From Escherichia coli (GTDB lineage: Bacteria; Pseudomonadota; Gammaproteobacteria; Enterobacterales; Enterobacteriaceae), in assembly GCF_003334255.1 (NCBI RefSeq), contig NZ_QOWU01000010.1: a stretch of DNA of 64,000 bases. One strand, written 5' to 3'. The notes below the pieces were generated by a model. It was not told the origin of the DNA. It saw only the letters and a list, made by a program, of their open reading frames with translations, and made no database searches. A program made the translations under genes and the position numbers. Shown one piece after another: positions 1-590 of this stretch (position 1 is its first letter; each line of letters opens with the position of its first letter).

Positions 1-590
1 CGCTGAAAGGTGCACGTCCGGTTCGGGGAGGAGAGGCAGGGAAATAGTCCGACTACGCCCTGCCTCTTACTCTACTCAGCACATGGCGGGGCTTCGTCTA
101 TGTGGCGTTCATCATTGATGTGTTTGCCGGATACATCGTGGGGTGGCGGGTCTCATCGTCCATGGAAACGACATTCGTGCTGGATGCACTGGAGCAGGCG
201 TTATGGGCCCGTCGACCGTCCGGCACGGTCCATCACAGTGATAAAGGTTCTCAGTATGTATCGCTGGCCTACACACAGCGGCTTAAGGAAGCCGGATTAC
301 TGGCATCAACAGGAAGTACAGGCGACTCGTATGACAACGCGATGGCGGAGAGCATCAATGGTCTTTACAAAGCGGAGGTAATACACCGTAAGAGCTGGAA
401 AAACCGTGCAGAAGTGGAACTGGCCACACTCACGTGGGTGGACTGGTATAACAATCGACGATTGCTGGAAAGGCTGGGCCATACTCCTCCGGCAGAAGCA
501 GAAAAAGCTTATTATGCTTCCATCGGAAACGATGATCTGGCAGCCTGAGTTCACAGATAAAACACTCTCCAGGAAACCCGGGGCGGTTCA
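1..590 (+). mobile_element. IS3-family insertion sequence, 3' portion (IS629/IS1203-like right end); element continues beyond window start
   Basis: ORF ending at 548 translates to the C-terminal DDE region of an IS3-family OrfB transposase (HHSDKGSQY ... [19 protein letters not shown]); sequence ...CCAGGAAACCCGGGGCGGTTCA ends at 590, which I recognise as an IS629-type terminal inverted repeat; the ydhS reading frame breaks at 590/591. Confidence 0.75.
48..548 (+). CDS. IS3-family transposase OrfB, C-terminal part (open frame begins after an in-frame TAG at 45..47; GTG at 102)
   Basis: Translation [14 protein letters not shown]...[56 protein letters not shown]...; DDE integrase-core motifs; stop TGA 546..548. 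Confidence 0.8.

Follow-up and report, generated by a model that had tools for sequence, protein, structure and literature searches.

There is very little doubt that the window, by which we mean the whole 64,000-nt stretch of Escherichia coli DNA analysed here (contig NZ_QOWU01000010.1), opens inside a mobile group II intron. Its first 75 nt are read as the last 75 nt (intron positions 2196-2270) of the 2270-nt intron E.c.I4, lying in sense orientation in orfB of an IS629-like element. Two loci are named repeatedly below. L001 is a closely matching intron-bearing locus from strain 504239, and L002 is an uninterrupted IS629/IS1203-type element from strain NCTC9699, which provided the intron-free comparison. 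The features at this end of the window are the following.

1-24, plus strand: nt 11-34 of E.c.I4 domain V, comprising the upper helix, the GAAA tetraloop, the AC bulge and the 3' strand of the lower helix (Rfam, fold)
25-26, plus strand: GG linker between domains V and VI, unpaired in both the Rfam alignment and the minimum free energy (MFE) fold
27-73, plus strand: long hairpin of domain VI, in which 27-41 pairs with 58-68 and 70-73 and A69 is bulged (MFE fold, Rfam consensus)
45-47, plus strand: the TAG flagged in the sequence-only reading, no codon but part of the small apical hairpin of domain VI, in which 45-48 is paired to 52-55
74-75, plus strand: terminal AC of the intron, with the 3' splice site between 75 and 76 (alignment with the intron-free IS)
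76-548, plus strand: exon 2, the C-terminal 157 codons of the IS629-like orfB, without internal stops and ending in the stop codon TGA at 546-548 (NF033516, alignment)
549-590, plus strand: end of the IS downstream of orfB, untranslated, with the right terminal inverted repeat; it finishes with ...CCCGGGGCGGTTCA at 590, where homology with L001 and L002 stops
591-1077, minus strand: 5' fragment of ydhS (FAD/NAD(P)-binding protein), gene nt 1-487, cut by the IS; against the intact ydhS of strain G1/2 (L008), the right flank starts from gene nt 487

A sharp break at the start of the window

The window opens cgctgaaaggtgcacgtccggttcggggaggagaggcagggaaaTAGtcc..., and its first 25 codons, read from base 3, are unlike transposase. 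The sequence-only reading had judged that about the first 75 nt were foreign to the transposase and had proposed a pairwise alignment with IS629-type elements as a check. When window positions 1-620 were aligned with the intron-free L002, homology covered 76-590 and no IS counterpart was found for 1-75, which places the break exactly at 75/76. In the alignments of the same segment with L002 and L001, IS homology begins at position 76 with TCAGCACATGGCGG... and ends at 590. The discontinuity at 75/76 is real and sharp.

The same reading had noticed a TAG at 45-47 in the frame of orfB. The codon is there: translation of 3-548 puts it in one frame with the orfB that ends at TGA 546-548. It does lie upstream of the conserved FIIDVFAGY block, at a distance of 21 codons counted to the F (108-110) and not of about 18. 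The interpretation that a stop had thereby arisen inside the transposase catalytic domain is not borne out, as the TAG is part of the apical hairpin of domain VI of the intron and is no mutated transposase codon. By itself the TAG carries no statistical weight, because one stop is expected per 25 non-coding codons. The intron length of 2270 nt is not a multiple of 3, and therefore "in frame" has no meaning across the intron.

The intron tail

Positions 1-75 of the window are identical at 75/75 positions to the tail of E.c.I4-2b, a published copy from E. coli E24377A that we used as the reference for E.c.I4 (NC_009801 4848623-4850893, coordinates from supplementary table (file 4) of PMC3522654). 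The corresponding locus, L006, holds the same 2270-nt element and differs from the intron of L001 at 3/2270 positions. The window covers 75 of the 2270 intron nucleotides (3%), and domains I-IV, the ORF of the intron-encoded protein and exon 1 would lie upstream of it; within this 3%, no difference from E.c.I4 is visible. The target is also of the same kind, an IS629-type transposase of the IS3 family.

The Rfam family RF00029 (Intron_gpII, domains V-VI) matched positions 1-75 over model positions 13-77 with 37.9 bits (E=8.1e-6), and the match was flagged as cut at its 5' end. This partial score is slightly below the gathering score of 40, as is expected of a 5'-cut match, and the complete domain V/VI at L001 4989-5075 scored 64.9 bits against the same gathering score. 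Nucleotides 1-10 of domain V, among them the catalytic triad AGC, would lie upstream of the window; the full hairpin that bears the AGC is present in L001, which is 99.8% identical. Domain V folds as a canonical 34-nt hairpin with a 2-nt bulge and a GNRA loop, complete in L001 and represented by nt 11-34 in the window. The fold of domains V and VI together had an MFE of -48.2 kcal/mol (z = -6.45), and 0/200 shuffled sequences were as good.

The bulged A69 is the seventh nucleotide from the 3' end of the intron and is aligned to the bulged A of the Rfam consensus. It is the predicted branch point of the lariat. The 3' ends of group II introns follow the AY rule, and the terminal AC fits it. The 3' end of the intron is identical across L001, L003, L004, L005 and L006.

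Complete copies of the intron

In L001 the intron occupies 2806-5075 (2270 nt), running from GTGTGCCCGG... to ...CTTACTCTAC, and complete copies start with GTGTG and end with AC. Exon 1 of L001 ends ...GGCTGATTTTACTTACG, and the intron sits precisely after ...GATTTTACTTACG in the IS629-like orfB. Exon 1 ...GATTTTACTTACG joined to exon 2 TCAGCACATGG... is the uninterrupted IS sequence, and the first exon-2 base, at window position 76, comes directly after ...TTACG where the IS has no intron. In silico removal of the intron from L001 gave an IS of 1309 bp, with 1274/1310 identity to the 1310-bp IS of L002. The spliced sequence was open for 125 codons in the orfA frame and for 317 codons in the orfB frame, just as long as in L002.

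The IS of L001 occupies 2012-5590 and is bordered at each end by a 3-bp duplication, CCA. L001 also contains orfA, the left inverted repeat and the ALIL pseudoknot of the -1 programmed frameshift, which scored 120 bits in Rfam. Its PGAP annotation places ltrA (group II intron reverse transcriptase/maturase) upstream of the stretch that matches the window and flanks ltrA with two "IS3 family transposase" halves, both recorded as incomplete pseudogenes.

The protein encoded by the intron of L001 has 502 aa and matched TIGR04416 with 338.5 bits (cut-off 300). Pfam found RVT_1 and GIIM in this protein and no HNH endonuclease domain. E.c.I4 and S.f.I1 have been assigned to ORF class A, which is without a D/En region (PMC3552965, PMC4244168). 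On these domain matches, the Pfam result agrees with the published placement in class A. The complete copies that carry the tail seen in the window resemble E.c.I4 in their length of 2270 nt and in their endonuclease-less reverse transcriptase/maturase, which matches class A. None of the Rfam models for group II domains D1-D4 matched the complete intron, although E values of up to 1 were allowed, and the RNA structural class is therefore taken from the literature.

According to Leclercq and Cordaux (2012, PMC3522654), E.c.I4 inserts at particular sites within the IS3-like transposases of IS629, IS911, ISEc16 and ISEc31. The composite of E.c.I4 in IS629 is already known and adds no new biology. 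E.c.I4 is the Zimmerly database name of this Escherichia/Shigella intron, which is near-identical to S.f.I1 and corresponds to the "IntA" introns of Han 2004.

The IS629 part of the window

Downstream of the splice site, T76 and C77 complete the split codon G|TC (Val). The exon 2 product (156 aa) matched NCBIfam NF033516, IS3 family transposase, at profile positions 228-369 of 369 with 177.5 bits, above the cut-off of 160. Window positions 76-590 are identical to L001 at 515/515 positions and to L002 at 502/515. The right inverted repeat at 577-590, where TGAACCGCCCCGGG is found on the minus strand in its sole copy in the window, is identical to that of L002. The C-terminus of orfB, the right end and the inverted repeat over 76-590 all align with IS629/IS1203/IS3411 of the IS3 family; unlike O157-type IS1203, from which it has diverged by about 2.5-3%, the copy in the window carries an intron. 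Its 5' portion, with orfA and the site of the frameshift, would lie upstream of the window. Within the window, no second homing site, IS629 end or group II intron was found elsewhere.

The catalytic residues were assigned from the known DDE layout of the IS3 family. On this assignment the second D is encoded at 240-242 and the E at 348-350, both in exon 2, and the intron follows directly on the motif W-x-x-D-x-T-Y, to which the first catalytic Asp belongs.

Insertion in ydhS

The IS lies in ydhS, and the flanking chromosome is 100% identical to that of E. coli strains with intact ydhS. The junction of the IS with ydhS nt 487 was absent from 5,426 complete E. coli genomes, from metagenome contigs and from GTDB species representatives, the latter two having been scanned for exact matches. 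Window positions 1-1100 were contiguous in 0 of the 5,426 complete E. coli genomes searched. The 215-aa ORF listed at 430-1077 on the minus strand is an artefact, in which the N-terminal frame of ydhS runs 161 nt into the end of the IS.

Intron-less copies of the IS629 family are found in ydhS elsewhere, at nt 464 in O157:H7 N8B7-2 (L007, about 2704-4013) and at nt 175 in NCTC9699 (L002 3316-4625), and each of these two insertions has its own 3-bp duplication. The gene looks like a recurrent landing site for IS629-type elements.

Distribution and other targets of the intron

The intron with 200 nt of IS629 flank on each side was found in 1870/5426 complete E. coli genomes, about a third, when a query coverage of at least 80% was required. 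Positions 1-595 of the window are about 99.8% identical to many loci in complete E. coli genomes, in which a 2270-nt reverse transcriptase/maturase element splits an IS3-family transposase. The same intron, with 2-4 differences per 2270 nt, is found at the homologous position in other members of the IS3 family that have diverged (L003, L005 and L006). The presence of near-identical copies in several IS targets gives indirect support to splicing and retrohoming activity.

In L004 (NZ_CM194009.1, 1489-3830), exon 1 on one side of an E.c.I4 copy is ISEc52-like, while exon 2 on the other side is IS629-like. This arrangement suggests homologous recombination between intron copies residing in different IS elements. 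E. coli K-12 has a 3'-truncated E.c.I4 that is annotated as ykfC ("reverse transcriptase domain-containing protein"); it is 99.1% identical and covers only query positions 173-1964, in agreement with the fragment given in PMC3522654. Besides the truncated K-12 copy, the same source records fragments of E.c.I4 and copies whose ORFs are disrupted.

Proposed mechanism

E.c.I4 would retrohome into the sense strand of IS3-family orfB genes, its RNA reverse-splicing into the DNA under the guidance of EBS/IBS pairing, and the intron-encoded reverse transcriptase would then copy the inserted RNA. Reverse transcription would probably be primed from the nascent strand of the replication fork. This type of priming is presumed from the lack of an endonuclease domain in the intron-encoded protein, and it is established for the endonuclease-less intron RmInt1. 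Once inserted, the intron would be transcribed together with the transposase gene and would leave the RNA as a lariat branched at A69. Splicing would restore the OrfAB mRNA, and the IS therefore need not be dead. On an unspliced mRNA, translation of OrfAB would stop 21 codons past the splice junction and yield a truncated protein.

The hairpin GGCAGTG-ATACGTAAG-CACTGCC has in its loop a candidate EBS1, CGTAAG (intron positions 331-336). Assigned by complementarity only, it forms 6/6 pairs with the IBS1 of IS629, CTTACG, against 4/6 pairs with the other occupied targets, CCTATA and CCTACA, and its hairpin alone is no more stable than shuffled sequences (z = -0.2). The exon 1 tails at L003 1489-1528, L005 1465-1504 and L006 184-223 have CCTATA or CCTACA as their last six bases, and none of the differences between the intron copies falls in the candidate EBS1. 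Either target recognition is relaxed or the assignment of EBS1 is incomplete. A search of intron positions 1-700 for an EBS2 yielded no convincing complement to exon positions -7 to -13. All targets have T as the first base of exon 2, consistent with an EBS3 of A.

The proposed behaviour resembles that of RmInt1 from Sinorhizobium meliloti, which homes into ISRm2011-2. Both introns have an endonuclease-less encoded protein and home into a transposase gene, and the IS would serve as a harmless mobile landing site. The two differ in protein class (D for RmInt1, A for E.c.I4), in host and in target IS. The comparison draws in part on the discussion in PMC3522654.

Alternative readings

A copy that is defective or chimeric upstream of the window would show the same E.c.I4 3' end. 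The intron might be truncated at its 5' end, the ORF of its protein might be disrupted, or exon 1 might come from a foreign IS3-family element, and splicing would then restore no working transposase. The chimera in L004, the truncated ykfC of K-12 and the disrupted or fragmentary copies on record (PMC3522654) are precedents. However, matches with IS629 flanks are mostly full length (coverage of at least 80% in 1870 genomes), and the 590 nt that are visible carry no defect. We consider a defective or chimeric copy unlikely.

It is also possible to see the intron as a splicing-dependent switch of the IS, and the intron-bearing IS in ydhS as a recent hop that carried the intron as cargo. The truncated OrfAB would keep the DNA-binding N-terminus and, of the catalytic residues, only the first Asp and could inhibit transposition, and the spliced mRNA would yield active transposase. 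We regard such a role as doubtful and give it little credence.

The sequence-only reading had also considered that another sequence, a different IS or chromosomal DNA, was joined here to a 5'-truncated IS629. A deletion or rearrangement of this kind would leave a sharp break in homology such as that at 75/76, and the part of the claim that concerns foreign sequence at 1-75 is upheld. The 5' truncation of the IS is not, and the foreign stretch comes neither from a different IS nor from the chromosome but is the 3' end of E.c.I4. The break falls on the 3' splice site of E.c.I4 to the nucleotide in five independent loci, and the sequence upstream of it is a canonical domain V/VI that ends in AC. 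A truncation junction is hardly credible on this evidence.

A decayed relic, in which a point mutation made a nonsense codon in the transposase catalytic domain, would have its TAG at 45-47 in the orfB frame as observed, but it is scarcely conceivable, given that the intron-free IS has ...CCAGCTGTGGGTGGCTGATTTTACTTACG ahead of TCAGCACATGG where the window has unrelated sequence, that 1-75 is identical to the tail of E.c.I4, and that 76-548 has neither stops nor frameshifts and is identical to other copies. The earlier suggestion of an inactive relic is likewise without support from the complete copies elsewhere, in which removal of the intron gives full-length orfA and orfB.

The preferred reading, E.c.I4 in an IS629-like orfB, is relevant mainly for annotation. 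Where a transposase gene seems to have an in-frame stop and a stretch that resembles no transposase, this can mark the edge of a group II intron and not decay. IS629::E.c.I4 is a textbook nesting of one mobile element in another and is very common in E. coli.

Other features of the window

Rfam matches to mir-9201, mir-459 and sR2 in positions 1-700 were far under their gathering scores and were rejected as chance. The Rfam family HPnc0260 ("bacterial antisense RNA") matched with 112 bits at 1492-1654 (plus strand) and 1619-1773 (minus strand), opposite two tandem tRNA genes, which are tRNA-Val in homologous annotated loci. This match probably reflects a model that was built on tRNA-antisense sequence and not a separate gene. 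The enterobacterial sRNA family STnc550 was matched over its full length at 10365-10755 on the plus strand, with 396.5 bits.
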